Source: Escherichia phage vB_Ec-M-J
Direction: 5' to 3' (one strand)
Length of the DNA: 64,000 nt
Sequence record: OQ718158.1
Part shown: positions 35,046-64,000 of the stretch, one piece after another
Layout: the number at the start of each line of letters is the position of its first letter
Numbering within the stretch: position 1 is the first letter of the stretch
The notes under the pieces: model-generated
The model's database searches: none
Seen by the model: the letters and a program-made list of their open reading frames with translations, nothing else
What the model was told of the DNA's origin: nothing
Position numbers and translations under genes: made by a program

Positions 35046-36194
35046 TTACTGCAAAAATGACATATCGACTTCTGTATAATTAAGAACGTTCTGTCCAGAA
35101 ATACCACCCATTACTACTATTGCAAGGCCACAATAATATAATTTTCCAGTATCAGTAAGTATAAGTGAACCAGATGGGGTGCGTACCAAATTACAAGAGG
35201 TATTAAACGAAGTATATGAAGGAGTATAGGAGTACTGATTAATATTATTACCAACACCTAATTGACCAGACGCGTTGCTTCCAGATGCATAAAGTACTTC
35301 ATCACCTTTAACTATATGTGATGCCATGTTACCAACACAAGTATATAAACTATAAACACCTGCACTCAATAATGTGGGGGTTTTATATTGTATATCAGTA
35401 GAAGAGGAAGTACCACCTGTACCAAATTCGTTCCCATATTGTGCACCGAACTGTTTACCACAAGCGTACAAATTATTATCCGATTTGATAAAAAATGTAC
35501 TCTGATAACTTACATTAAAATCTATAACATCCGAAGAAATCATCGTCACCCCAGTAATAGAAGTTTGATTACCCGTGCCCAACTGGTAGTAATAGTTAAA
35601 ACCACAACCCCATAAAGTATTATCTTCTCGCAAATAAATGTTACCAACTGCCTTTTTAACCGAAGTTATAGTATCTACTCTTTTGAATGTGTTAAAAGAA
35701 TTAATGTTTGTGCCATCACCAAATGATGATATGTTCGATATATTGTTAGCTCCACAACAATACAATGTACCATCGTTTGTTATCAAATTCACCTTCATAT
35801 CATAAAAACTACTCATGTATTTTATATCAGAAACATTAATACCACTTGATGTTATCCACGTAGTACAGTCCGTCCACAAAGTTTTTCTATCAGTTACACC
35901 AGTGAATGCCTTCGTGTTACCAGTGATAAAAACTTTTCCAGTACCTTTCTCTTCATACAATTGACAATCACTACTGTTATCTTCCAATAGAACTCGTTTA
36001 ACATTCTCCGCACAAAGAATAAATTTACTCGATGCTACACCTGTACCAGTACCCCAATTCGTCGCAGAAGATGCATACAACTTATCAGTATAAGTATCAT
36101 GAAGATACATAGAATCACTGGAATATATTTTAAAACGCCCAGAGTTGGTAGGTGCTTCATTCCCATAATCAAACATTCTTACAAAAGGTAACAT
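35046..36194 (-). CDS. beta-propeller protein, RCC1-like, leader MLPFVRMFDYGN
   Basis: 382 aa; motifs YYQLGTGN, SGQLGVGN. Confidence 0.8.
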   Translation of the reverse strand: MLPFVRMFDYGNEAPTNSGRFKIYSSDSMYLHDTYTDKLYASSATNWGTGTGVASSKFILCAENVKRVLLEDNSSDCQLYEEKGTGKVFITGNTKAFTGVTDRKTLWTDCTTWITSSGINVSDIKYMSSFYDMKVNLITNDGTLYCCGANNISNISSFGDGTNINSFNTFKRVDTITSVKKAVGNIYLREDNTLWGCGFNYYYQLGTGNQTSITGVTMISSDVIDFNVSYQSTFFIKSDNNLYACGKQFGAQYGNEFGTGGTSSSTDIQYKTPTLLSAGVYSLYTCVGNMASHIVKGDEVLYASGSNASGQLGVGNNINQYSYTPSYTSFNTSCNLVRTPSGSLILTDTGKLYYCGLAIVVMGGISGQNVLNYTEVDMSFLQ

Positions 36195-36206
36195 ATTTCC
36201 TCCAAA

Positions 36207-37112
36207 TTATTTAAAAACATACTGCGTATTAACACGTGTCCCGTTGTCGTAACCAAGTACGTAAAATATTTCAGCACTATTATTAGAGCCAAATAATGCA
36301 CCAGTACTATTACTCAACGTTGTATTGATAGCTAATGGTATCCATTTGTTTTGCTCGGCATCATATTTTAATAAATTTAATGCACCATAAGATACTGCAT
36401 ATATACCTTTGTCATATCTATTGTAAATTATCTTACTAGGGTTAGCTCCACCAACTGCTGCCATTCTTGACCAAACCGCACTCTCTATGTGATATTTTTG
36501 TGCAGGAGTAGATCCTTGTCCTGTAAAATATATGTAAGTACCATCAGTGCACATATCACCACCACCATTGTTTGTTGTATTCCCAGTAGTACCTAACGAT
36601 GTCCATGTATTAGTACTCGGCGTATAACTATATAATGCAGTATTAGACGGTGAACCCCACAAATATATCTTATCCCCTGTAGTAATCATCTTACTATATA
36701 CTGCCTGGTTAGGTTTGCCAACACTTGTATTATTCAGTGTCCATGTATCAGAGCTTATGTCATATACATAAAAATTATTATTAGCAACATTCGCTGCACC
36801 TAAACCACCGAACAAATATATTTTTCCTTGATAGGCACACAATGCACTTCCATAGGTGGATACTGGTGGTGATGATAATTGTACCCATATTCTAGAATTT
36901 AAATTAAAACTCCATAACTGATTATCCTGGTTCGAAGTATTCATTATACCACCAAATATATAAGCAGTATTTCTTGATGCATCATACGTATAACCAAAGT
37001 TATTTCGTGCTGAAGGTACTGGTGATGTGGTAAATTGAGTTCGTATACCACCATTTGGGGCTGGTAATGGAGCTTCATTCCCATAATCAAACATTCTAAC
37101 AAAAGGTAACAT
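36207..37112 (-). CDS. Kelch-type beta-propeller protein with the same leader MLPFVRMFDYGN
   Basis: track ORF trimmed to MLPF start; Kelch-like blades YIFGG, IYLFGG, IYLWG, YIYFTG. Confidence 0.75.
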   Translation of the reverse strand: MLPFVRMFDYGNEAPLPAPNGGIRTQFTTSPVPSARNNFGYTYDASRNTAYIFGGIMNTSNQDNQLWSFNLNSRIWVQLSSPPVSTYGSALCAYQGKIYLFGGLGAANVANNNFYVYDISSDTWTLNNTSVGKPNQAVYSKMITTGDKIYLWGSPSNTALYSYTPSTNTWTSLGTTGNTTNNGGGDMCTDGTYIYFTGQGSTPAQKYHIESAVWSRMAAVGGANPSKIIYNRYDKGIYAVSYGALNLLKYDAEQNKWIPLAINTTLSNSTGALFGSNNSAEIFYVLGYDNGTRVNTQYVFK

Positions 37113-37159
37113 ATTTCCTCCTTTATTCATTATATCATATTTACCCCATAAACAAAACC

Positions 37160-37188
37160 CTTGACATCCTTTCAGTACTGGTGTACTA
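37160..37188 (+). promoter_or_regulatory. sigma70-type promoter for the plus-strand small-gene array
   Basis: TTGACA-N17-TACTAT in divergent region between Kelch gene start and array. Confidence 0.55.
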
Positions 37189-37214
37189 TAGAAGGAATAC
37201 AAGGAGAACTACAC

Positions 37215-37442
37215 ATGACAGCTACACTTAAGTACTACATTAATACTCTAAATGAACTAGAGTACGGTAAGTTTCTCGCGGATAGTTCGTGGCTAATTGA
37301 GCTAAAAACACATAACAGTACTGGATGTAACCTTATGCTGAACAATGCACTTGATACCCTTGTAGTGAGTATTTTACACAGCACCATCTGCGGGGATAGC
37401 AATAAACAATTATCAAAAATCTTAGTACTGGTAGCTCTATGA
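37215..37442 (+). CDS. small protein, EYY-family-like (first gene of plus-strand array)
   Basis: track ORF trimmed to ATG after AAGGAG; N-terminal KYYINTL; behind TTGACA-N17-TACTAT promoter. Confidence 0.5.
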   Translation: MTATLKYYINTLNELEYGKFLADSSWLIELKTHNSTGCNLMLNNALDTLVVSILHSTICGDSNKQLSKILVLVAL

Positions 37443-37651
37443 ACACTATGAACATTGAACAGTACTACATTGATGCACTGCCAACAAAAGGTCTACGAGA
37501 AAGCCTACTGTATACACAAAATAATTATATAAACCTCAAACATTGTCCTAAACTATTGAACTCGTACAGGAATAATAAAATAAGAAATGCTGTACAAGGG
37601 GTAGAAAGTATGCAATACTATTACATCCTAACCCTTTTAATCGAGCACTAA
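37439..37651 (+). CDS. small protein, EYY-family paralog
   Basis: about 70 aa; N-terminal QYYIDAL, C-terminal YYYILTLLIEH. Confidence 0.55.
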   Translation: MNTMNIEQYYIDALPTKGLRESLLYTQNNYINLKHCPKLLNSYRNNKIRNAVQGVESMQYYYILTLLIEH

Positions 37652-37652
37652 T

Positions 37653-37838
37653 ATGTATAAAGAATTCTACTGTAGTAAGCTGCACAAACAATACAGAGAT
37701 TCATTTCCCAATGAACCTATGGATATGAATAGTCCCTTTTATAAATTTGACTTCAGACTGGAGACACGTTATGCAATAGAACATCAATTTCCTGAAACTA
37801 AGTACTTATCTATCATGAACCTCATCTTTAAGTTCTAA
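37653..37838 (+). CDS. small protein, EYY-family paralog
   Basis: N-terminal MYKEFY; hydrophobic C-terminal motif. Confidence 0.55.
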   Translation: MYKEFYCSKLHKQYRDSFPNEPMDMNSPFYKFDFRLETRYAIEHQFPETKYLSIMNLIFKF

Positions 37839-37849
37839 AAGAGTACTAT

Positions 37850-38062
37850 ATGAAAACTATGAACATACACCAGTACTACTTAGATATTCTCCCTAAAGAT
37901 GTACAGTTCATCCTTAAACAAGAATACAGTACTTTAAAAAACCTTAAAAGATCCGCACCGAATGTATTAATCCTGCACCAAGAAAATGTAGTTGATAATA
38001 TTCTACAAGGTGTACCAGGGACCGAGTACTTTAACATAATAAGGCTAATTACATTACCATGA
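37850..38062 (+). CDS. small protein, EYY-family paralog
   Basis: N-terminal HQYYLDILP; C-terminal EYFNIIRLITLP. Confidence 0.55.
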   Translation: MKTMNIHQYYLDILPKDVQFILKQEYSTLKNLKRSAPNVLILHQENVVDNILQGVPGTEYFNIIRLITLP

Positions 38063-38244
38063 ATCATATATTATACTATTACCAAAATCTATCCGACAGG
38101 GACAAGTACACCCACAACTCCAATGTATGGTACTACAAACGCGGTAGTATAAGAGACAAACAACATTACTTCTGTATTGCTATAAAAGAAGCACTAACAA
38201 CTAAGTACACGTACAGAGCAGTACTGAAACTTATTGATATGTAA
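38059..38244 (+). CDS. small protein, EYY-family paralog
   Basis: C-terminal YTYRAVLKLIDM; ATGA overlap. Confidence 0.55.
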   Translation: MNHILYYYQNLSDRDKYTHNSNVWYYKRGSIRDKQHYFCIAIKEALTTKYTYRAVLKLIDM

Positions 38245-38254
38245 AGAGAATACT

Positions 38255-38437
38255 ATGAGCATTGAATTGTACTTAAGTAAATTACAGCCTGGCGATAGAT
38301 TCATCTACAATAAGTTCGAATTCAACTACAAGAACGGGAGCAACAAATATCGTCGAGGATACCTATATACAAGCACAAGAGATGCACAAAACGAAAAGTA
38401 CACATACAGAGAAGTACTTAAACTAATCTCTATTTGA
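38255..38437 (+). CDS. small protein, EYY-family paralog
   Basis: track ORF trimmed to ATG; C-terminal YTYREVLKLISI. Confidence 0.5.
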   Translation: MSIELYLSKLQPGDRFIYNKFEFNYKNGSNKYRRGYLYTSTRDAQNEKYTYREVLKLISI

Positions 38438-38445
38438 GGTAATAT

Positions 38446-38631
38446 ATGAATACATTTGAGTACTATACAAATAAACTATCTATGCCTGAAAGATCTCATC
38501 TCTATGTGTGGAGAAATGCGTATAAAAGCGGCAATAAACTTATACAAAGAAATTCCCTTACAGTGTGTACAAATTTAATTAAAGCAGAGTACCGCACATA
38601 TATTGAAGTACTCAAACTGATAGCAATCTAA
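38446..38631 (+). CDS. small protein, EYY-family paralog
   Basis: N-terminal MNTFEYYTNKL; C-terminal EVLKLIAI. Confidence 0.55.
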   Translation: MNTFEYYTNKLSMPERSHLYVWRNAYKSGNKLIQRNSLTVCTNLIKAEYRTYIEVLKLIAI

Positions 38632-38639
38632 GGTACTCT

Positions 38640-38819
38640 ATGCAAGAATTCTATATCTATAACCTCCAGCACAAAGATAGATACAACTATAATAAATTCC
38701 AAAGGTACTACACAGTCGGGAACAAAAGAGATAAAAAACGTTATCTACTCTCGTGTACAGTAGAAGCACAAAACGAAAAGTACACGTACAGAGAAGTACT
38801 TAAACTAATCTTAATCTAA
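38640..38819 (+). CDS. small protein, EYY-family paralog (59 aa)
   Basis: hand-found ORF below track threshold; MQEFYIYNL...YTYREVLKLILI. Confidence 0.5.
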   Translation: MQEFYIYNLQHKDRYNYNKFQRYYTVGNKRDKKRYLLSCTVEAQNEKYTYREVLKLILI

Positions 38820-38826
38820 GGTAGAC

Positions 38827-39015
38827 ATGAACACTTTTGAGTACTACTTCAATAAACTAAACCACATAGAACAAAGTATGCACAACTCATTTATTCAGCA
38901 CCATCAATCATCTGCACATGGAATTAAAAATATATCGATTGAGATTATCACTACCCGTGTACTGTCATCTGAACGTTATATGTATATTGATGTACTGAAA
39001 CTCATCTCTATGTAA
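38827..39015 (+). CDS. small protein, EYY-family paralog
   Basis: N-terminal MNTFEYYFNKL; C-terminal DVLKLISM. Confidence 0.55.
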   Translation: MNTFEYYFNKLNHIEQSMHNSFIQHHQSSAHGIKNISIEIITTRVLSSERYMYIDVLKLISM

Positions 39016-39023
39016 GGAATAAT

Positions 39024-39203
39024 ATGCAAGAATACTATATAGAACACATAAGCATTAAAGACCGTTTCATGTACGACACCTTCGTGAAGTACTACAACCT
39101 GGCAACTAATAGTACTAAAAATATTAATCTCAATAGCTGCATTCATCACGCACTAACAAAAGATAATCCCTTCAGGGAAATCCTCGCTCTCGCATCTGTA
39201 TAA
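39024..39203 (+). CDS. small protein, EYY-family paralog (59 aa)
   Basis: hand-found ORF below track threshold; N-terminal MQEYYIEHI. Confidence 0.45.
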   Translation: MQEYYIEHISIKDRFMYDTFVKYYNLATNSTKNINLNSCIHHALTKDNPFREILALASV

Positions 39204-39213
39204 AGGAAACCAA

Positions 39214-39873
39214 ATGAAACTTAATGCACACAGCAAACAATACCTTAAGCACTTTAAATACCTCAACAGTATTCAAGCAGAATCAGTTACATCATCTTAT
39301 ACGTATCACCCGAATATACTAAAGAAACGAAATAAAAAGAAAAAATCCAGAAATGTTCTCGTATCTAAGAACCTCAAATCGTACTTGAAGAAAAATAATA
39401 TAGCTCTTGCTTTTATTAATATCTATAATACTGATTTAAAAGTATTGAGTACTAATACCAGCACAAAAGCACTAAAGAATGCATCTATCTATATACACAT
39501 GGATAATATCCCGTGCACTATAATTCTATCTTTCGGGAATGTATACTTCTTCGGGAATTGTAATAGCACCCATGATATCAGTACTGCACAATTCCAAATC
39601 GGCGATATGTACTGCATGGGTTCAGAAAAAATACACGATAACATGCACTTCTTCCAAAAGCAACGTACTAACGAAACTGATACAGTACTGCAATTCCTCA
39701 AAGAATTACCAGGCAAAGAATTAACACCAGAAGAAGAATTCATGTACAGTACTGTAATCGATAATCCAGGACTCTATAAAAACGCGTACAAACTAACAAA
39801 ACATGTACAGGAACTTATCAGTACTGATAAGAAAATTCATCACCTCATTACGTATATTACAAACTATGTATAA
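39214..39873 (+). CDS. hypothetical protein (219 aa) interrupting the small-gene array
   Basis: track ORF; basic N-terminal region; GGAAAC RBS. Confidence 0.55.
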   Translation: MKLNAHSKQYLKHFKYLNSIQAESVTSSYTYHPNILKKRNKKKKSRNVLVSKNLKSYLKKNNIALAFINIYNTDLKVLSTNTSTKALKNASIYIHMDNIPCTIILSFGNVYFFGNCNSTHDISTAQFQIGDMYCMGSEKIHDNMHFFQKQRTNETDTVLQFLKELPGKELTPEEEFMYSTVIDNPGLYKNAYKLTKHVQELISTDKKIHHLITYITNYV

Positions 39874-40048
39874 AGAATACTACAAAGATAAAATCCCAAT
39901 GCATCTACAACACCATATACCAAACGTTGCATTGGGTATCAAAGATCACGCAAAGATAATGTTCCAACAATGTACTAAGTACACGCTCATATACGATGAT
40001 AATCCATATATGCTGTACTACGTAGTAATGCTAACATTCAGGTACTAA
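39866..40048 (+). CDS. small protein, EYY-family paralog
   Basis: track ORF trimmed to MYKEYYKDKIP; C-terminal YYVVMLTFRY. Confidence 0.5.
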   Translation: MYKEYYKDKIPMHLQHHIPNVALGIKDHAKIMFQQCTKYTLIYDDNPYMLYYVVMLTFRY

Positions 40049-40049
40049 T

Positions 40050-40229
40050 ATGCACAAACATAAAGAATTCTACCTCTCGTACCTTAATTCCGATATAGTA
40101 ACATCCAATACCTTCAGTACTAAAATTATCTATAATGAATTAATGAAAGAGTGTATTAAAGGTGCTATTAACCCTAAAGATACGTATGACTTGTACTATG
40201 CAGTACTAACCCTTGTTTTCACGAAATAA
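40050..40229 (+). CDS. small protein, EYY-family paralog (59 aa)
   Basis: hand-found ORF below track threshold; N-terminal MHKHKEFYLSYL. Confidence 0.45.
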   Translation: MHKHKEFYLSYLNSDIVTSNTFSTKIIYNELMKECIKGAINPKDTYDLYYAVLTLVFTK

Positions 40230-40237
40230 CACATAAT

Positions 40238-40429
40238 ATGAATAACCACAAAGAATACTACATAGATAAACTCCCAATGCATCTACAATACCTTGTACCA
40301 ACAGAACCATTGGGTATAGAAAAAGACTACGAAAAAGACTACTTCGTTAAGTGCACTAAATCCTCGATAGATATTGAGGACTATAATCGAGTACTGTATC
40401 ACATCCTTTTACTAATATATAAGTACTAA
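40238..40429 (+). CDS. small protein, EYY-family paralog
   Basis: N-terminal MNNHKEYYIDKLP; C-terminal ILLLIYKY. Confidence 0.55.
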   Translation: MNNHKEYYIDKLPMHLQYLVPTEPLGIEKDYEKDYFVKCTKSSIDIEDYNRVLYHILLLIYKY

Positions 40430-40430
40430 T

Positions 40431-40619
40431 ATGAATAACCACAAAGAATACTACATACAATTTCTCCCCAGTATTTTTGAACACTACGCCAGATATAAAG
40501 TCCCCCTGGATAACGATTTGGCAGTACTGGGATTCAATAACTGCATAGAACGAAGTATAGAAAATAGTAGTAGTTATGACCAATTATATAACACTATCCT
40601 ACTTATATTCAGGTACTAA
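40431..40619 (+). CDS. small protein, EYY-family paralog
   Basis: N-terminal MNNHKEYYIQFLP; C-terminal ILLIFRY. Confidence 0.55.
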   Translation: MNNHKEYYIQFLPSIFEHYARYKVPLDNDLAVLGFNNCIERSIENSSSYDQLYNTILLIFRY

Positions 40620-40620
40620 T

Positions 40621-40812
40621 GTGTATAAAGAATACTACATAAAAGATTTACCACCGCACCTTCAAGGTAATCTGTTAGAAGATGAACCTCGCGGTATCAA
40701 TGCTCAAAACGATAAAGTGTACTTTACTATGTGCACTAAAGCATGTATACTAGATTTTGACAGCTATCATCGAGTACTGTATCATGTACTGTACCTAGCT
40801 TTCGTGTACTAA
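40621..40812 (+). CDS. small protein, EYY-family paralog (probable GTG start)
   Basis: paralog alignment places start at GTG giving (M)YKEYYIKDLP; C-terminal VLYLAFVY. Confidence 0.45.
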   Translation: MYKEYYIKDLPPHLQGNLLEDEPRGINAQNDKVYFTMCTKACILDFDSYHRVLYHVLYLAFVY

Positions 40813-40822
40813 AGAGGCCAAT

Positions 40823-41029
40823 ATGAACGAACAGAAAGAATTTTACACCAAACACCTCAGTGCATCAGAACAAATGTTTCTAAGGAGTGTATCACCTTTA
40901 AGTTTAGATACACCACACGCCAGAGATTGTTTTAATAATTGTATACGTATTACTCTAGAAGCTTTAGAAAATAATAACAAAAATATTCAGTACTCAGGCG
41001 TAATGGGACTAATATTCTTCTATGAATAA
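40823..41029 (+). CDS. small protein, EYY-family paralog
   Basis: N-terminal MNEQKEFYTKHL; C-terminal GLIFFYE. Confidence 0.55.
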   Translation: MNEQKEFYTKHLSASEQMFLRSVSPLSLDTPHARDCFNNCIRITLEALENNNKNIQYSGVMGLIFFYE

Positions 41030-41210
41030 CAAAGAATTCTACATAAACCATCTGGAACTAAACTCCCAAATGCTTATACCACTAAACCCAATAGATATCA
41101 AGGATAAGAAAAATACCCAACAATTCATTTACCATACACAGTGTGCTATCACTCCAGATTATAATACATATAAACTGTACTACATTCTCGCCCTAATATA
41201 CAGGTACTAA
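41022..41210 (+). CDS. small protein, EYY-family paralog
   Basis: N-terminal MNNKEFYINHL; start overlaps upstream stop. Confidence 0.55.
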   Translation: MNNKEFYINHLELNSQMLIPLNPIDIKDKKNTQQFIYHTQCAITPDYNTYKLYYILALIYRY

Positions 41211-41211
41211 T

Positions 41212-41397
41212 ATGCATAGAGAATACTACACACAATTTGTTAAAGGGAACTACAAACACGCCGTCCCCGTAAACCCCTTAAATTCTAATGACCCAAGTAC
41301 TATATTCTTGTTCCATGACGCAATACGTACAGTACTCAATACTAAAGATGAACAGGTGCAGTACGTATTCTTACTATTACTTATATACAGACACTAA
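41212..41397 (+). CDS. small protein, EYY-family paralog
   Basis: N-terminal MHREYYTQF; C-terminal LLLLIYRH. Confidence 0.55.
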   Translation: MHREYYTQFVKGNYKHAVPVNPLNSNDPSTIFLFHDAIRTVLNTKDEQVQYVFLLLLIYRH

Positions 41398-41402
41398 CTA
41401 AT

Positions 41403-41612
41403 ATGAATAAAGAACATAAAGAATACTACTCCAAACACCTCAGCCCCTCAGAACAAATGTTTCTAAGGACTACAGCACCTTTAAGTACTGATACATATTT
41501 CGGCAGATTATGCTACAATAATTGTATTCAAATGACTTTAAACGCAAACGACAATAATAACAGTACTAACCTGTACTCAGGCATCATAGGTATACTATTT
41601 CTATATGAATAA
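41403..41612 (+). CDS. small protein, EYY-family paralog
   Basis: N-terminal MNKEHKEYYSKHL; close paralog of 40823..41029. Confidence 0.55.
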   Translation: MNKEHKEYYSKHLSPSEQMFLRTTAPLSTDTYFGRLCYNNCIQMTLNANDNNNSTNLYSGIIGILFLYE

Positions 41613-41787
41613 AGAACATAAAGACTTCTATATAAGAAAACTAACATTCGTCCCCGTAAAAATATATAAAGAATGCGACCCAAGATTATACCTATGGCAC
41701 TTCAATGAGTGCATAAAAGATTCTATATACCCTAAGAACTACAAAGAACAATTGTGCTCAGTACTAACCCTAGTACTATCATATTAA
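41605..41787 (+). CDS. small protein, EYY-family paralog
   Basis: N-terminal MNKEHKDFYIRKL. Confidence 0.55.
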   Translation: MNKEHKDFYIRKLTFVPVKIYKECDPRLYLWHFNECIKDSIYPKNYKEQLCSVLTLVLSY

Positions 41788-41800
41788 TAGAGATAATACT

Positions 41801-41983
41801 ATGCATAAAGACTTCTATATAAGTAAACTCAAAGAGAATGAACAAGCATGGGTTAACAATTTAATCCCCCTGGCAATGACTCAATACGAATTTAATATGT
41901 GTACAAAGATTGTTTTAACTAGTAATGATATCTCTAATACGTACTACTTCCTATTAAGAGTACTATATGGTACTTTGAAATAA
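41801..41983 (+). CDS. small protein, EYY-family paralog
   Basis: N-terminal MHKDFYISKL. Confidence 0.55.
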   Translation: MHKDFYISKLKENEQAWVNNLIPLAMTQYEFNMCTKIVLTSNDISNTYYFLLRVLYGTLK

Positions 41984-41994
41984 TAAGGTATACT

Positions 41995-42201
41995 ATGCAG
42001 AACATAAAAAACTATAAAGAGTACTATATAAGTAAACTACCACCGACTGACCAAGCATGGATTAGATCTATAATAGTACTGGCATTTAATAGATATGCAT
42101 TTAACAGATGTACCGAGATTGCTATAGACCCTTATAATATTAAAGAGAATGTACAGCATAATCAGTACTACTATATGTTAATGCTTATATATAGGAAGTA
42201 A
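41995..42201 (+). CDS. small protein, EYY-family paralog (last of array)
   Basis: N-terminal KEYYISKLP; C-terminal YYYMLMLIYRK. Confidence 0.55.
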   Translation: MQNIKNYKEYYISKLPPTDQAWIRSIIVLAFNRYAFNRCTEIAIDPYNIKENVQHNQYYYMLMLIYRK

Positions 42202-42547
42202 TTCAACATATAGACAGGGGGAAGCTCCGCAGGGAAAGCATTGGACAGGCTTTAACATATGTTATATATGTTAAAATTCAGCCTGGACAAATGCGATCAC
42301 TAGGATTCTCCCCAGGCTAAACCCCGTAATCATATGTAGTCATAAGTAATCATATATAAACATTTAAGTAATCATTTATAATCACTGTAGTGATCAGTAG
42401 TGAGTACTAGAGTGTAATAGAGTACAGGAATGTGCACGTTTAATCAAGAACGTAGCAGTACTGATATGTCACTAAAGTAGGCAGAGGAAGTCTGCCGTAC
42501 TTTGTAGTTTCCAAGCTCCTTTTCCATTTTGCAAATTACATCAAATG

Positions 42548-42574
42548 TAATCAAAAGTAATCAAAAGTAATCAC
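42548..42574. repeat. short tandem repeat GTAATCAAAA x2.7
   Basis: AATGTAATCAAAAGTAATCAAAAGTAATCA. Confidence 0.6.
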
Positions 42575-43263
42575 GCAATGATTAGTACTGAATTATTACT
42601 TTCACCTTAATTTCAATTACCCCTTTACCCTTCGGGGTAAAATTCCATTACCCCTTGAGGCTCCAGCAAAAAGTTGGTTAGTACTCCATCCTAAATCTCG
42701 ATCCTAAAAATTTTGGAGTACCTATGAAATAAAAGTTGGATCTTCGAAATTTGAAATTTACGTTGGGACGTTTATGATTTGTGGGATATAATGATGTTTG
42801 TAGTCGGGTAGTTTTCAAGAATATCAGCACTGAATAATGAAAGAAAGCTATTGACATTATGATTCAGTACTGTATAATGTTCTACATAGGGTGATGAGTT
42901 GCTGCGAACAATTCATTTACTCTACCTCCTGTCGTGAGACAGTACAGAAAAGATAGTTCCTCCTGTGGTGGTACATCTTTTTGAACCTCATATGAAAATC
43001 GTAATAACAGTACTGATATTAACAGAATGGTGTCAGTACTGATTTTAATCTAAAGCATTATGCCACCAGCACAAGCTGGTGGATTCCCTCTAACAGTATT
43101 CAGTACTACATGATGGTCTTCATCCTCCTAGGGTAACATAGTGAGGGCTATGATGGCAGTACTGAATACTCCCTTTCAAAAGATAGATCTATGGTATAGT
43201 ACTGACGGATTTTGGGCGTAGTTACCCTGGATGGATTTTGGACGTAGATATGTCTAGCCCTCC

Positions 43264-43395
43264 AGAAGTCTGGAAGTAAAGATGGCTATCCATCTAGACG
43301 GCTAAACGGCTAGATTTCTGGATGGCTAGATGGCTAGACGTTTGGACGGCTAAACGGCTAGATGGTTACACGTCTGGAAGTATAGACGGCTAAAT
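43264..43395. repeat. iteron-like direct repeats of (C/T)GGCTA(A/G)A
   Basis: about 9 copies of GGCTAGA/GGCTAAA within 130 bp, plus repeated TCTGGAAGT. Confidence 0.6.
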
Positions 43396-44151
43396 CAAAA
43401 TTTTATTTTGTTTTTCCAATAGTTCCCCTACCGCGTGGGGATAGTTTCCCCGCAGTATCTGGAGTTAGATTTTTCTGAATCTGGAATCATTATCTTATAA
43501 ACTGGGGGCAATGTCAACGACCTGGACGGATATTTTTAAAAATTTTTTCAGTACTGAATTTTGGGCGTAACTATGCACCCGGTGGGCTTGAGTCTTTCTC
43601 GACTTGATGGAACTATTATACAGTACTGAAAAAATAAAGCAATACCCTGGAAGCAAAAAAGTTTTAATTAATTTGCTTGCTATCCTGGGCCGGACTATGG
43701 TACTATATTTCAGTACTGAGAAAGTGCGTTTACCTGCTAGGGTGCGGGAGTGTATCCTTTTTTTATATCTTGAATTTTGGGCGTAATTCCGCACCCTCTG
43801 GGGTTTCCGCTTTCTCGCGTCTATGTAGTAATTATACGCTTTTTCAGGATCAAGTCAATACCTAAAAACAAAATAATTGAAAATAATTTAACGCGTTTAA
43901 ACGGCCCGTAAAGCCCTGGAATGATTGGAATGGTGCAAATGTATAGCTTAGGTGTATTAATGCGTTAGAATGCGTCTGAGGCCGTTTTACGGGGTATAGG
44001 GATGATTTGGTGGATTGATTCAGTACTGAATGATAGTACTACTATATAGAAAGATAGTTCCCCTGGATGGTTGCAGTACTGAATGATAGTACTGAATAAT
44101 AGTTCCCCTATATAGAAAGAAAACTATTTTAAAAGTATTTGTAGAAAGTAC

Positions 44152-44179
44152 TTGCAAACTAAGTTTAACGGCGTATAAT
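44152..44179 (+). promoter_or_regulatory. class-A early promoter
   Basis: AAAGTACTTGCAA-N16-TATAATGTTTTACATC, one of about 30 near-identical copies. Confidence 0.7.
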
Positions 44180-44234
44180 GTTTTACATCGAGAGCGGGAA
44201 CACTTCCCGCTACATATTACGAGAGATTAAAACG

Positions 44235-44597
44235 ATGGCGACTCAAATCACTAAAATTATTGCTAACCTGGTTAACTTTCGCGACGAGATGAAAGATCTT
44301 CCGGCAGAAACGGTAAAAATTCACATTTCAGCTTATCGGGAACTTATTGCAATGTTACCGCTTAAGCGTGAACAATACGCCGCGACCGTGATGCTTGATG
44401 CGATGATCCATAAGATGATCGCCAGTGATTTAACGATGGTTTATCAGTATATGGGCGAAAATTTCGCGGTGTATAGTAAACCAGTACCAGGAATGGAAAG
44501 TACAGAAGTATTACACGGTTTAAATTTAAAACAAGATGCATGGGATAATATGCCTCGTTTCCTGGTATGGGCTGACAGTGGCAAGATTTACGAATAA
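44235..44597 (+). CDS. small early-type ORF (hypothetical)
   Basis: track ORF trimmed to ATG after class-A promoter and GC hairpin. Confidence 0.55.
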   Translation: MATQITKIIANLVNFRDEMKDLPAETVKIHISAYRELIAMLPLKREQYAATVMLDAMIHKMIASDLTMVYQYMGENFAVYSKPVPGMESTEVLHGLNLKQDAWDNMPRFLVWADSGKIYE

Positions 44598-44611
44598 GTT
44601 TTAAAAAGTAC

Positions 44612-44639
44612 TTGCAAACTAAGTTTAAAAGCGTATAAT
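44612..44639 (+). promoter_or_regulatory. class-A early promoter
   Basis: same consensus; hairpin at 44651..44671. Confidence 0.7.
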
Positions 44640-44691
44640 GTTTTACATCAGGTGGGGAATAGTTCCCCACTATAATTAAGAGATTAATTTC

Positions 44692-44925
44692 ATGAGTACT
44701 ATTTTAACTGTTTCTCAATCCGTTGCACTGACTGACCTATTAAACGCTTTAAGCCGTTGCACTGAGGTTGGCTTGTTTGATGTGGTAGACGTTGCACCGG
44801 ACGTTATTAATCATTTTTGTGATGCGATGGAAGAATGTAAGGAAGATGATAGCCGTATGATGGCGGTCGCCTTTGAGGAAGTACAACCAGGTGAGATCAA
44901 AGGTTTACCAGTACTGAAAAAATAG
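44692..44925 (+). CDS. small early-type ORF (hypothetical)
   Basis: behind class-A promoter and hairpin GGTGGGGAATAGTTCCCCACT. Confidence 0.55.
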   Translation: MSTILTVSQSVALTDLLNALSRCTEVGLFDVVDVAPDVINHFCDAMEECKEDDSRMMAVAFEEVQPGEIKGLPVLKK

Positions 44926-44928
44926 TAC

Positions 44929-44956
44929 TTGCAAACTAAGTTTAAAAGCGTATAAT
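44929..44956 (+). promoter_or_regulatory. class-A early promoter
   Basis: same consensus; hairpin at 44968..44988. Confidence 0.7.
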
Positions 44957-45007
44957 ACTTTCTATCAGGTGGGGAATAGTTCCCCACTATATAAGAGGAT
45001 TTAAAAA

Positions 45008-45247
45008 ATGGCTAAATCAAAAATGTTCTTAGGTCACAAAAACAAAACTCATTGGAATGTAAGCCTTTGGATTAATAACGATGAGTCATTGTACCGGTTG
45101 GCCCAGGACTTTATTAACGATAGCACTAATCGCAATGATGCGGCCCGTCATATGATGTTATTTTTAGAACAGACTGGACAAGATAAAACACCGGACGGAT
45201 TCAAATATAGCACTACTGCGATCCGTGCGGCGATGGTTGGAATGTAA
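45008..45247 (+). CDS. small early-type ORF, paralog of 47111..47350
   Basis: shared HKNKTHWNVSLWINN and C-terminal TPDGFKYSTTAIRAAMVGM. Confidence 0.65.
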   Translation: MAKSKMFLGHKNKTHWNVSLWINNDESLYRLAQDFINDSTNRNDAARHMMLFLEQTGQDKTPDGFKYSTTAIRAAMVGM

Positions 45248-45335
45248 TAGAATAGAATTTATTTAAAGTACTATTGCACGGGGATAGTACTTTATAATAG
45301 TGTTTTATTCATACACCAACGATAAGGGCAACAGC

Positions 45336-45602
45336 ATGAATATTAAGTATTTTGCGACGCGTGAACAAGCTCGGATCGCCGCACGGCAGGACGGGGCAAC
45401 GTTTAAAGATATGGGCGTACAATCGGAACGTGGTAAACGTTGGGCCATTGTAAAGCGTAGTACCGCCAGATCATTACAGTACTGGTTAGCGGCCTTAAAA
45501 AGTCCCGATAGTGTATCGCGTCGAGTGGTAGAAATAAAGCTCGACCGAAAGGGCAACCGCGTGACTGTGTACCGTACTAAAAAGATTGCAGTACTTGAAT
45601 AA
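45336..45602 (+). CDS. small early-type ORF, paralog of 57850..58245
   Basis: track ORF trimmed to ATG after AAGGGCAACAGC; shared FATREQARI...RKGNRVTVY. Confidence 0.6.
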   Translation: MNIKYFATREQARIAARQDGATFKDMGVQSERGKRWAIVKRSTARSLQYWLAALKSPDSVSRRVVEIKLDRKGNRVTVYRTKKIAVLE

Positions 45603-45609
45603 AAAGTAC

Positions 45610-45637
45610 TTGCAAACTATGTTTAATGGCGTATAAT
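45610..45637 (+). promoter_or_regulatory. class-A early promoter
   Basis: TTGCAA-N16-TATAAT then GCGGGAACACTTCCCGC hairpin. Confidence 0.7.
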
Positions 45638-45689
45638 GTTTTACATCGAGAGCGGGAACACTTCCCGCCTATAACCTGGAGTAATAAAA

Positions 45690-45920
45690 ATGACTAATAT
45701 GTATATGACTGAAGTTAAAACCGTAAAAGATACTACCACGAATAAAACTACTTACTTACAGCGGATCTGCGGTGTATGGCAACGTATCAGCAAATCAAAG
45801 TACTTTAAATTAACATCATATGCAAACCGTTCGGATTCATTCAGTACTGAAATAAAAGGTAATAAAGTACACCAATACGGCACTTATTATTATTATAGCC
45901 TGGACGCGATTGCAGTCTAA
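45690..45920 (+). CDS. small early-type ORF (hypothetical)
   Basis: behind class-A promoter and hairpin; GGAG RBS. Confidence 0.55.
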   Translation: MTNMYMTEVKTVKDTTTNKTTYLQRICGVWQRISKSKYFKLTSYANRSDSFSTEIKGNKVHQYGTYYYYSLDAIAV

Positions 45921-46201
45921 GCAGTTTACAAATCTTTACAATTGCCGGTATTGACTTATTTTGTCAGTACTGGCATAATGTATTCATTGGCAGATAAGCC
46001 GTAGCCCATAGGGTGCGGGAGTGTATCTATAGAAAAATTAGTTTAGTACAGTTACAATTGTGCACCCGGTGGGTTAGCTGTTGTCATGGGGTATATTATG
46101 CCAGTACTTGATAATGCTGTCAATACTTTTTTAATATTCAGTACTGAAAACTATTTTTAAAAAGTACTTGCAAACTATGTTTAAAGGCGTATAATGTTTT
46201 A

Positions 46202-47110: not shown

Positions 47111-47350
47111 ATGGCTAGTACTAAAACTTACAACGGGCACAAAAACAAAACTCATTGGAATGTTTCCTTATGGATTAATAACGGTGAGTCATTGTATCGG
47201 CTTGCTCAAAGTTGCATCGCACAAAGTAGAACTAAAGATATTGCTGCGGAATGTATGTACCGCAGATTAAAAGCCAACGGTACTACTACAACGCCGGACG
47301 GATTCAAGTATAGCACTACGGCGATCCGTGCTGCAATGGTTGGAATGTAA
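47111..47350 (+). CDS. small early-type ORF, paralog of 45008..45247
   Basis: near-identical N- and C-terminal blocks; own promoter and hairpin. Confidence 0.65.
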   Translation: MASTKTYNGHKNKTHWNVSLWINNGESLYRLAQSCIAQSRTKDIAAECMYRRLKANGTTTTPDGFKYSTTAIRAAMVGM

Positions 47351-54823: not shown

Positions 54824-55081
54824 ATGGCTGTTGGATTCGCGAAGGACGGGGCCGAGCAAGACGAGATTAACGCAGTTATTCAGGCCGCTGTAAACCACGC
54901 TAGAACGCAAATTAACGCACAAATAGAATCACTGATACATTGCCTCGACTGTGGCGATAAAATCCCTGAGAATCGCCGCCAGGTCGTTAAGGGGTGTAAG
55001 TACTGTATCACTTGCCAGGAGGATCATGATAGTACTTTTAAACGTCAACCGCGTAATTGTTGGCATAGATCTATGAGATAA
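54824..55081 (+). CDS. TraR/DksA-family-like C4 zinc-finger protein
   Basis: CLDCG...(17 aa)...CITCQ, the CxxC-N17-CxxC spacing typical of TraR/DksA. Confidence 0.55.
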   Translation: MAVGFAKDGAEQDEINAVIQAAVNHARTQINAQIESLIHCLDCGDKIPENRRQVVKGCKYCITCQEDHDSTFKRQPRNCWHRSMR

Positions 55082-55144: not shown

Positions 55145-55501
55145 ATGGGAATACAACATATCACGCGTACTACTGACAATGGCGAGATCACTGGCTATCA
55201 AGTACAGGGCAAAGTAGCACAATTGCAGTACTGGTTTGTTAAACGTGGAATCATTGCACCGGATCTTGATTATGACCGTGTAGCGTTTATTGATTCTCTT
55301 TATGTTGATCCTGATAGTCGGGGGAATGGTGAAGGTAACGAATTAATGAATGCCTTTATTGATGCCGCCGATGATTCAGATTGTATCATCTTAGAATGCG
55401 ATACGGGAGAAGATAACGCCTTTAATCTTAAAGAATGGTATGAAGGTTTCGGATTCGAGGTACTGATCGATAGTGAATATCCTATCATGATTTTATCATA
55501 G
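55145..55501 (+). CDS. small GNAT-like acetyltransferase (putative)
   Basis: LYVDPDSRGNGEGNELMNAFIDAA resembles GNAT acetyl-CoA-binding motif A. Confidence 0.4.
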   Translation: MGIQHITRTTDNGEITGYQVQGKVAQLQYWFVKRGIIAPDLDYDRVAFIDSLYVDPDSRGNGEGNELMNAFIDAADDSDCIILECDTGEDNAFNLKEWYEGFGFEVLIDSEYPIMILS

Positions 55502-58306: not shown

Positions 58307-58561
58307 ATGATTAAGGTTCAACTATCAAACGATAATGTATTACGGGTACACTATAAAGCACCTCAGAGAATCATCACAAAGGCCGTACAGCTTGCTAATG
58401 AGTTTATTAATGGTAACCTATTACCTAGGAAGTTAAGCAACGGGAAACTGCGTGTAATCGACGTGGACACTAACAACAGGATAGTAATCGAGAACACAGG
58501 AAAGATAAACCTTTATGAGCATCAACAATACAATAAGAAAATAAAACTAATATCACGTTGA
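58307..58561 (+). CDS. small ORF (hypothetical)
   Basis: 84-aa track ORF; AGGA RBS. Confidence 0.5.
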   Translation: MIKVQLSNDNVLRVHYKAPQRIITKAVQLANEFINGNLLPRKLSNGKLRVIDVDTNNRIVIENTGKINLYEHQQYNKKIKLISR

Positions 58562-63848: not shown

Positions 63849-64000
63849 TGCGTAAAAGGATTTAGTACTGAATCATAAAAAAGTCAAGGTATTTTTAAAC
63901 TTCAGCGTTAAAAAAATGCATAGGTAATCCCTTGACTTTTATGAATAAAAAGGGATTGGACTATGGCAAAATGCGTAGGGGGCTAAAGGGCGGGTAACCT

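Follow-up and report, generated by a model that had tools for sequence, protein, structure and literature searches.

A conserved gene-free leader with MetJ-operator-like boxes at the predicted genome end of the Asteriusvirus jumbo phage vB_Ec-M-J

Long direct terminal repeats (DTRs) have been described for several Rak2-like jumbo phages. Escherichia phage fEgEco12 has a linear genome of 374,733 bp with DTRs of 20,993 bp, established by PhageTerm and restriction digests (PMC13070987); the same work gives the DTR of vB_Ec-M-J as 21,525 bp, and DTRs of 20,668 bp and 22,456 bp were reported for Sharanji (PMC11895373) and CBB (PMC5259590), respectively. Unique, non-permuted virion ends have been demonstrated in relatives by PhageTerm and restriction digests (PMC13070987; PMC11895373), and the DTRs and ends of the close relatives are already published knowledge. 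The published accounts (PMC13070987; PMC11895373; PMC5259590) cover repeat length and promoters; they describe no 1.3-1.8-kb leader, no cut-site context, and no arrays of boxes. Here we analyzed a 64,000-nt stretch of Escherichia phage vB_Ec-M-J (record OQ718158.1; “the window” is this whole stretch), and in it the block at 42202-44234, which an earlier reading made from the letters and open reading frames (ORFs) alone (the sequence-only reading) had described as ORF-free and repeat-rich, with a replication origin, a packaging site, or a cluster of non-coding RNAs as its candidate roles. In its overall plan the phage resembles fEgEco12, Sharanji, CBB, fENko-Kae01 (Kae01), and Muenster, which all share the same ends, a repeat of about 20-22 kb, and small early genes each with its own promoter. 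We find that the block very probably marks the place where the unique genome meets the right copy of the 21,525-bp DTR of an Asteriusvirus, and that its gene-free leader contains a tandem array of 8-bp boxes resembling the operator of the host repressor MetJ.

Judged by its sequence, the window comes from an Asteriusvirus (a Rak2-like jumbo coliphage) and covers the final 64 kb of the genome. The left physical end mapped for fEgEco12 corresponds exactly to base 42476 of the window (AGTAGGCAGAGG...): the 25-mer that opens the fEgEco12 record (AGTAGGCAGAGGAAGTCTGCCGTAC) has a single exact match in the window, at 42476. From there to 64000 the window aligns with the fEgEco12 repeat, first through last base, and the final bases of that repeat (...GGGCGGGTAACCT) align with the final bases of the window, to base 64000; the window holds the right copy only, and the two DTR copies of fEgEco12 show no difference over the 3.7 kb compared. 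Because the final base of the window is exactly the last base of the repeat, the window should be the 3′-terminal 64 kb of the linear record. The linear G17 record, in reverse-complement orientation, has 64000 as its first and 42476 as its last base; WPEC3 and WPEC5 begin, as G17 does, at the reverse complement of 64000; the BF17, ELP-22, CRJP21, and E9.1 records have the start offset of fEgEco12; and the 20,668-bp DTR of Sharanji is consistent with the G17 coordinates. Since the ends of fEgEco12, G17, and other records coincide there, we take 42476-64000 (plus strand) to be the right DTR copy, with 42476 corresponding to the left and 64000 to the right physical end; its length, 21,525 bp, is the DTR length published for vB_Ec-M-J (OQ718158.1; PMC13070987). 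This assignment of the termini, made by homology to mapped relatives, is a strong one. The block would then consist of 274 bp of junction on the unique side (42202-42475) and the first 1,759 bp of the repeat, the gene-free leader. It had been placed at the boundary between the small-gene arrays and the early region, and it is not simply that: unique genome meets the right repeat copy here. The packaging site among the suggested roles is supported by the same coordinates, 42476 being the left physical end of fEgEco12 and one G17 record end, and 64000 the other end.

Some observations limit how exactly this end can be placed. The ends were mapped in relatives and are assigned to vB_Ec-M-J by homology; the window has one additional A at the junction (CACTAA/AGTAGG), so the end may be one base off; and a comparison of the left and right DTR boundaries gave no common motif beyond the ubiquitous AGTACT, so that an end-forming signal has to be deduced from conservation alone. 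By position and conservation, the cut-site context, a terminal hairpin, and phased repeats are the candidate parts of such a signal. Directly ahead of the end, CAGTACTG-N6-22-CACTA is found in 12 of the 14 Asteriusvirus sequences, as well as in EJP2 and GAP32, which are more distant; in the window, CAGTACTG (42456-42463) and CACTAA (42470-42475) close a hypervariable spacer outside the DTR (42380-42475), in which indels and divergence concentrate when the 14 genomes are aligned. CMSTMSU lacks the context, and A4 gave no match to the end motif. Since CACTA is missing ahead of AGTAGG in the CMSTMSU record (UNVERIFIED, 386 kb, circular), that record may have been joined wrongly at the repeat. In EJP2 and GAP32 the sequence following CACTA begins TATC..., and TATC also opens the records of CBB, pEa_SNUABM_44 (pEa44), XbC2, and fENko-Kae01. 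Four nucleotides inside the end stands the terminal hairpin (GGCAGA-GGAAG-TCTGCC, 42480-42496; about 97% conserved), and Kae01 and EJP2 likewise have an inverted repeat at their ends. About 65 bp from the end, still inside the DTR, the tandem GTAATCAAAA repeat already noticed in the sequence-only reading is present as a phased 10-bp repeat of 3.4 copies (42540-42574; 95% matches in TRF), with a copy number that varies among phages.

We infer that CAGTACTG-N-CACTA followed by the cut, within the 274 bp left of 42476, could be the outer half of the end-forming signal, and the terminal hairpin with the phased GTAATCA repeats its inner half; in concatemers, these would be the target of terminase or, following the T7 model, of a nicking activity linked to strand-displacement synthesis. 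The same 274 bp also appear to hold the structured 3′ end of the upstream small-gene array. The stem-loop described behind the last array gene is indeed there (42247-42285, plus strand; -17 to -20 kcal/mol), with an AGGCT/AGCCT outer stem and an inner stem TTAACATAT/ATATGTTAA that is replaced by compensating variants in relatives (TTAACAATT/AATTGTTAA in fEgEco12, TTAACATCT/AGATGTTAA in JNE01). GTAATCA-type repeats of 10-11 bp (repeat family D2; TRF periods 10 and 22) lie on the unique side as well, at 42326-42396.

Rather than being absent from related phages, a possibility raised at the outset, the block and its flanks match 43 phage records, 34 of which cover at least 80% of the block. These are mainly Escherichia jumbo phages (Asteriusvirus where the genus is recorded), together with eight Salmonella phages and one Erwinia phage; identity is 88-97% among the 30 matches listed, the best being BF17 (96.7%). 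In the relatives examined, the roughly 2 kb between the last array gene and the first early gene carry no annotated genes, or small doubtful ones. Conservation of the leader equals or exceeds that of the genes on either side: across the 14 aligned genomes, 0.35-0.48 of its columns vary, compared to 0.48 for the first early gene and 0.79 for the preceding one. The leader is constrained, and it predates the genus. A common order of elements recurs, at about 70% identity or less, at the ends of CBB and GAP32 (both Mimasvirus), pEa44 and fHe-Yen9-03 (Yen9-03; both Eneladusvirus), XbC2, Kae01, Muenster (Alcyoneusvirus), and Hallingskeid; these ends are mapped or are record starts (CBB, Kae01, and Muenster have annotated DTRs, and the homologous TATC... 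sequence opens the pEa44 and XbC2 records). From the end inward, the elements are an AGTACTCCA...TGGAGTACC inverted repeat with TCCTAAA units, an inward sigma-70-type promoter, a GC hairpin, TTTTGGG(C/T)GTA, a repeat array, an A/T tract, a hairpin element, a leftward promoter, and a long inverted repeat between convergent promoters. The geometry of the promoters and the hairpin element is kept as well.

No ATG-initiated ORF of 60 or more amino acids (aa) occurs on the plus strand of the block, as had been stated. It is not ORF-free in the strict sense, since three mechanical ORFs of 60-99 aa with other starts are present: 43604-43786 (plus strand, TTG start, 60 aa), 43677-43865 (plus strand, TTG start, 62 aa), and 43495-43794 (reverse strand, GTG start, 99 aa). 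We rejected a coding role for all three, which are broken by stops or frameshifts in close relatives; their substitutions show no codon-position bias (32/26/26, compared to 18/16/33 in the neighboring gene). The true start of the first DTR (early) gene is at 44235, where a 363-nt coding sequence is annotated in relatives. ARAGORN found no tRNA or tmRNA genes in the window.

In vB_Ec-M-J the place of the repeat array is taken by tandem 8-bp MetJ-operator-like boxes (43248-43391), with a core of 14 contiguous boxes at 43280-43391 that read, in frame, AGATGGCT ATCCATCT AGACGGCT AAACGGCT AGATTTCT GGATGGCT AGATGGCT AGACGTTT GGACGGCT AAACGGCT AGATGGTT ACACGTCT GGAAGTAT AGACGGCT. The GGCTA(G/A)A repeats of the sequence-only reading belong to this array of 8-bp period (12.4 copies according to TRF); the label “iteron-like” given to them does not fit, as the units are contiguous 8-mers and not plasmid-type iterons. 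The boxes were scored by the half-metbox matrix of Augustus and Spicer, with their thresholds (PMC3228920): the 14 in-register boxes total 105 bits, more than the consensus score, and each unit scores 3.8-10.7 bits (per-box threshold 3.15, consensus 12.58). In the remainder of the 64 kb the longest run of boxes is two, all below 10 bits, and the probability that a random 8-mer scores at least as high as the unit AGACGGCT is 1.9e-4. We predict that the array is a super-operator for the host MetJ repressor bound to S-adenosylmethionine (SAM), a reading that we regard as a close call, if anything slightly on the doubtful side.

Every one of the 14 Asteriusvirus loci scanned has such an array, as do EJP2 (21 units), CBB, GAP32, pEa44, and Yen9-03 (the last with the unit consensus AGACGTCT). 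Comparable arrays are also present in unrelated phages: the T7-like PGT2 (record nt 38-109), phiKT, and KPV811 (near the 3′ end of its record), the Thalassavirus Quinn, and the T5-like AhSzq-1 (28 boxes, 221 bits). T5-like Vibrio, Aeromonas, and Providencia phages carry 8-bp arrays, with DnaA and LexA boxes adjoining in the two loci examined. With the AhSzq-1 array as query, blastn matched 89 phage records, 88 of which are Vibrio, Escherichia, Aeromonas, Erwinia, Salmonella, Providencia, Pectobacterium, Cronobacter, or Serratia phages, with hosts in the Enterobacterales, Vibrionales, or Aeromonadales; these make up only about six independent phage lineages. MetJ is confined to the Enterobacterales, Pasteurellales, Vibrionales, Aeromonadales, and Alteromonadales. 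The pooled unit matrix is similar to that of natural metboxes at each position, including the second-commonest bases, position 6 excepted.

Other sources of the likeness were considered. A phage-encoded MetJ was rejected, as tblastn against 50,697 phage records returned only three records, which are host DNA or a 1.4-kb fragment; and none of the 40 DTR proteins scanned has a ribbon-helix-helix (RHH), MetJ, or Arc domain. TrpR-type tandem CTAG sites and a LexA-box reading of CAGTACTG were rejected, as the flanking bases or half-site order do not fit. We also rejected the array as a general property of phages with long DTRs, since the direct repeat D of T5 is a different sequence with no metbox run. 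No paper connecting MetJ or metboxes with phage genome ends was found in the literature searched.

The surroundings of the arrays show some further features. Perfect LexA (CTGT-N8-ACAG) and DnaA boxes (TGTGGATAA) adjoin the arrays of Vibrio phage Quinn (locus coordinates 1000-1100) and Aeromonas phage AhSzq-1 (1295-1345), and both arrays terminate in CCTCCTGCGCCT, which may be the physical end of these two phages. In PGT2 a run of CTATCT/TATC repeats lies downstream of the 8-bp array (locus 255-370); CTATCCCTATCTGCTATC stands just ahead of the array in CBB, GAP32, and pEa44 (locus L017, 655-690), and TATC opens several Rak2-like genomes.

In fENko-Kae01, Muenster, and Hallingskeid the flanks of the array are kept and the slot is filled by overlapping arrays of Fur-box-like hexamers, for example GAGAATGATAATGATTCTC, which matches the Fur consensus at 16/19 positions. 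The whole fetched loci of Kae01, Muenster, and Hallingskeid contain five, nine, and four sites of at least 14/19, respectively (shuffles gave 0.1-0.35); the slot itself accounts for three of the Kae01 sites, three of the Muenster sites, and no site of Hallingskeid, where the slot array was recognized by eye only. At the same threshold no Fur site was found in CBB or EJP2, and the vB_Ec-M-J leader has none, with two 14/19 matches elsewhere in the 64 kb. The sister genera also have Fur boxes inside the long inverted repeat, in the loop that contains GAATTTTGGGCGTAAT in the window. In locus coordinates, the Fur-like clusters are at 690-795 and 1040-1065 in Kae01, 780-905, 1073-1098, and 2415-2445 in Muenster, and 1240-1350 and 1585-1610 in Hallingskeid; they lie in part between convergent promoters, which suggests iron-responsive control or titration of Fur in those phages. 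The main argument for host repressors, and against a phage-specific protein, as ligands of the slot is that two different host-repressor motifs share one conserved slot. We tentatively propose that evolution has filled the slot of the Rak2-like leader with operator arrays for polymerising, metabolite-sensing host repressors (14-28 MetJ boxes, or Fur boxes), so that the first DNA of the genome would read out or titrate the SAM or iron regulator, though we lean against this wider proposal more than for it.

The elements around the array can be followed from the phased repeats inward. The UUCG hairpin that had been reported is present (TTACCC-TTCG-GGGTAA, 42626-42641, plus strand); next is the inverted repeat AGTACTCCA ... 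TGGAGTACC (42680-42722), with two TCCTAAA units in its loop, which is kept in Asteriusvirus and has both arms in Kae01 and EJP2, the right arm (TTTTGGAGTACC) alone being evident in GAP32 and CBB. The promoter-like TTGACA-N16-TATAAT at 42851-42878 (plus strand; hereafter P1) is a 12/12 match with no ORF behind it, in agreement with the sequence-only reading, and points inward 376 nt from the end. The bin 42861-42880, which holds the P1 spacer and -10 hexamer, is invariant in 14 of 14 genomes, and six of the eight leaders scanned have a promoter-like site (at least 10/12) 270-400 nt from the end; CBB and XbC2 have none there at this threshold. The total of 14 promoter-like sites is not above the 15.1 expected from shuffles, and particular sites are credible only if conserved across genera. 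A 20-codon ORF behind P1 was rejected, as it is missing in EJP2.

Further inward is a GC-rich hairpin (CCACCAGC-ACAA-GCTGGTGG, 43063-43082; -16 kcal/mol), which is an ARNOLD terminator in the G17 annotation and is retained in Kae01. Among Asteriusvirus genomes its 4-nt loop reads either ACAA or the complement TTGT on identical stems, an inversion typical of palindrome-mediated template switching; this flip between close relatives points to events at the DNA level. Two 26-bp direct repeats with TTTTGG(G/A)CGTA (43204-43250; repeat family D7) stand directly left of the array, and GAATTTTGGGTGTA is at the corresponding place in CBB, GAP32, and pEa44. On the other side of the array are an A/T-rich tract (43392-43420), with the sole IHF-consensus match of the block (AATCAAAATTTTA at 43393), and a hairpin of CTACCGCG, a GGGGA/TCCCC stem, and GCAGTATC (43428-43459). 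The flanks of this hairpin, CTACCGCG...GCAGTATC, are kept in ten taxa around at least six stem sequences (GGGG/CCCC, CTGG/CCAG, CTAGT/ACTAG, CGGAATAT/ATATTCCG, AGGG/CCCT, and CAGGG/CCCTG among the stems seen), and the element lies 800-1000 nt from the end in eight of eight leaders; its covariation was assessed by per-sequence folds, because MAFFT set gaps in the 3′ stem instead of the loop. RNA folding and covariance had been named in the sequence-only reading as a way to examine the block: a Rfam 15 covariance search of 40000-46000 returned no matches at E ≤ 1, and the hairpin at 43428-43459 has covarying stems.

The leftward promoter of the common order is TTGACA-N17-GATAAT (43489-43517, reverse strand; PL1), directed toward the array and the genome end and convergent with P1. 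A scan found its counterpart in EJP2 and Kae01; in CBB and GAP32 a weaker TTGCAA-N16-TATTAT, below the scan threshold, was seen at its place by eye. A paralogous unit at 43553-43644 (reverse strand), with a leftward TTGCTT-N16-TATAAT (43644 to 43617), ...ACGCCCAAAA, and a TTCAGTACTGAA palindrome, was recognized through repeat families D5 and D7 and direct reading; it is the more weakly supported unit, and other genera lack it. The long inverted repeat GGGTGCGG ... CCGCACCC (43740-43797), with GAATTTTGGGCGTAAT in its loop, is kept in CBB, GAP32, Kae01, Muenster, and Hallingskeid, and in XbC2 it has a compensating double change (GGGTGG/CCACCC). At its right flank is another leftward promoter, TTGACT-N16-TATAAT (43831-43858, reverse strand; P3), kept in EJP2, Kae01, and Muenster. 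A variable patch of AGTACTGAATGATAGT / TAGTTCCCC repeats (44001-44120), in which 88% of columns vary, with indels, is followed by the first early promoter (AAAGTACTTGCAA-N16-TATAAT; repeat family D4), which together with a 5′-untranslated region (5′-UTR) hairpin (GCGGGAA-CAC-TTCCCGC, 44194-44210, plus strand) and a ribosome-binding site occupies 44152-44234 (plus strand).

If the array is read as a MetJ operator, its working could be sketched as follows. P1 and the other conserved promoters would be read by host RNA polymerase on the entering DNA; MetJ-SAM would polymerise over the array, between the convergent P1 and PL1; and the polymerised repressor, covering the leader as genomes enter and replicate, would serve as a roadblock or sensor that gates leader transcription by the SAM or iron status of the host. 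Alternatively, the array may serve to titrate the repressor. Several facts weigh against a MetJ operator. Position 6 is G in 53% of the units and in about 10% of natural metboxes, and the matrix comparison is itself biased, since the frequency matrix was drawn from units pre-filtered by the MetJ matrix. The run length overstates the significance, because tandem units are not independent. The array overlaps no promoter (the nearest predicted transcription starts are about 90 nt away for PL1 and about 360 nt for P1), and it regulates no met gene, none being present at the locus; T5 itself lacks an array of this kind. In T7-like and T5-like carriers, a titration role is weakened by the early shut-off or degradation of the host. 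Finally, one of the 89 array phages, XbC2, is recorded on Xanthomonas, a member of an order without MetJ. The XbC2 leader shares about 80% identity with the leader of Pectobacterium phage CBB, and an Erwinia phage, Kaldavass, matches it as well; given its MetJ-like array and CBB-like leader, the host assignment deserves a check.

A protein of the phage itself, such as the small terminase subunit or an RHH protein, might bind the array instead, the likeness to metboxes then being coincidental or convergent. This would suit the biology of ends, with the array near the mapped end in Rak2-like phages and near the record end in PGT2, KPV811, and Quinn; it would also accommodate the systematic departure of position 6 from the MetJ consensus, and the search for a binder covered only 64 kb of the ~378-kb genome. 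However, the same specificity would be needed separately in unrelated phage families, the host range of the array phages tracks the distribution of MetJ, and the sister genera exchange the array for Fur boxes, a second known host-repressor motif, with the flanks kept; with no MetJ homologue in the phage records and no RHH domain in the 40 DTR proteins, we judge a phage protein unlikely. A cluster of small non-coding RNAs, with short structured transcripts from P1, PL1, the 43644 to 43617 unit, and P3 acting in trans or as sense and antisense pairs, is compatible with the terminus, and we find it doubtful rather than improbable. The conserved sigma-70-type promoters without an ORF behind them, the hairpin with covarying stem some 30-55 nt downstream of the predicted PL1 start, the long inverted repeat between convergent promoters, and the stability of the leader hairpins would all be expected of such RNAs; but no Rfam family matches at E ≤ 1, no unit is ended by a canonical intrinsic terminator, and conservation is largely at the sequence level, including the loops, the ACAA/TTGT flip again pointing to DNA-level events.

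A replication origin, which could likewise coexist with the terminus, would consist of the 8-bp repeats, the A/T tract, and PL1, and would be either iteron-type or T4-like, in the latter case with a promoter transcript priming synthesis from an R-loop in an unwinding element downstream. The arrangement is suggestive: within about 90 nt behind PL1 there is the A/T tract (26-30 nt, with the IHF-consensus site) and then the array, the convergent promoters are conserved, the cumulative GC skew has its minimum at ~41.9-42.2 kb, and T5-like Vibrio and Aeromonas phages have perfect DnaA boxes beside their arrays. Yet the block contains no DnaA box (at most one mismatch) and no LexA box, its units are contiguous 8-mers and not iterons spaced at 17-22 bp, and no Rep-like gene is nearby, the 40 DTR proteins being without a match to a replication initiator. 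The GC-skew turn is not specific evidence, because one gene module gives way to another there, on the same strand. We therefore regard an origin as quite unlikely. Far less probable still is a functionless, decaying spacer or an assembly artefact at the repeat boundary. Its two signs are the indel-rich variable patches at 42380-42475 and 44001-44120; against these stand a 1.5-kb core at least as conserved as the neighboring genes in 14 genomes, an element order that recurs in other genera at ~70% identity, and the presence of the block in 43 records, with the coverage given above. A genome end with a conserved leader, whose array may be a host-repressor operator, remains the reading that we prefer.

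Some motifs and genes of the wider region were recorded as well. TTTTGGGCGTA occurs in three exact copies, as had been counted, plus one variant, and is confined to the block. For CAGTACTG, put at about 15 copies, we counted 10 in the block, and 18 of AGTACT. The enrichment of the AGTACT palindrome is unusual: it is the top over-represented hexamer of the window (288 copies, 21.6 expected), with a density of ~7 per kb in the array genes and the repeat (densest at 37001-64000) and 2.8 per kb upstream. Most copies extend to CAGTACTG, and the motif is not specific to the block; about 20 copies lie in early promoters (AAAGTACTTGCAA/TTGAC), the others are in coding and non-coding DNA alike, and it is frequent in the CBB, Kae01, GAP32, and Muenster leaders. 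The early repeat genes have promoters of their own, AAAGTACTTGCAAACTAAGTTTAA-N2-GCGTATAATGTTTTACATC (44126-44212, 44586-44672, and others), with 5′-UTR hairpins behind them (GCGGGAA...TTCCCGC or GTGGGGAA...TTCCCCAC), and AGTACTTG followed by two positions of A or C has 21 copies in the window, 20 of them within the repeat. Pfam matches among the repeat proteins are two DUF7249 paralogues, a DksA/TraR-type C4 zinc finger, a GNAT acetyltransferase, and a ParE-like toxin domain (genes at 45008-45247, 47111-47350, 54824-55081, 55145-55501, and 58307-58561); the 30-odd other small repeat proteins match no Pfam family. The upstream array of paralogous genes of ~60 aa (36000-42200) has negative GC skew and strongly positive AT skew on the coding strand, the repeat genes have positive GC skew, and 0.3-0.5 kb separate the cumulative GC-skew minimum from the genome end to its right.

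The terminus assignment would place the chromosome end to the base and account for 2 kb without genes. Many deposited Asteriusvirus records are permuted or have spurious ORFs at the block, which matters for annotation, and in engineering the cut-site context and the leader should be left undisturbed. If binding by MetJ or Fur were confirmed, it would be a previously undescribed use of metabolite-sensing host repressors by virulent phages; leader transcription, DNA entry, or end protection would then be coupled to host physiology, or the Met/SAM or iron regulon would be derepressed. In the literature searched, we did not find the leader architecture, the cut-site context, the MetJ-box reading, the exchange for Fur boxes, or the recurrence in unrelated phages described.

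Among known systems, the left end of T7 reportedly has a terminal repeat with adjoining CCTAAAG-type repeats, the host promoters A1-A3 in the first kb, and its first gene at about 0.9 kb. The leader resembles it in a non-coding first kb, short repeats by the end, inward host-type promoters, and fixed ends formed from concatemers, and the window has two TCCTAAA units at 42690-42707. It differs in that the repeat is 160 bp in T7 and 21.5 kb here, the 8-bp array is not the T7 repeat, and the phage is a myovirus with a T4-like set of replication and packaging genes (PMC5259590). The iss region of T5 is a 1.2-1.6-kb non-coding region with repeats, palindromes, and host-factor sites, which lies within the long DTR and is better conserved than the neighboring ORFs (bioRxiv 10.1101/866236). 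The leader is a comparable, repeat-dense non-coding region inside a long DTR; however, the T5 region is at the inner end of the repeat and has DnaA boxes, whereas the leader is at the outer end and has none, and the T5 repeats (TGTGCAAATCCGACA) are unrelated to those of the leader. We know of no two-step injection in Rak2-like jumbo phages. Fur-box arrays, as in the Fur titration assay (FURTA), have their likeness in Alcyoneusvirus Muenster, the Kae01/Munch group, and Hallingskeid, and not in vB_Ec-M-J, whose leader is without Fur boxes. The closest parallel to the array is the MetJ operator of E. coli (consensus AGACGTCT), with which it shares the exact 8-bp register, a 7/8 match of the unit AGACGGCT, and CTAG at the unit junctions. 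MetJ operators overlap the promoters of met genes and have T at position 6, whereas the phage array lies between promoters at the genome end and has G there in about half of its units. Natural MetJ operators consist of two to five boxes; the array here, with 14-18 (and up to 28 in AhSzq-1), has more.

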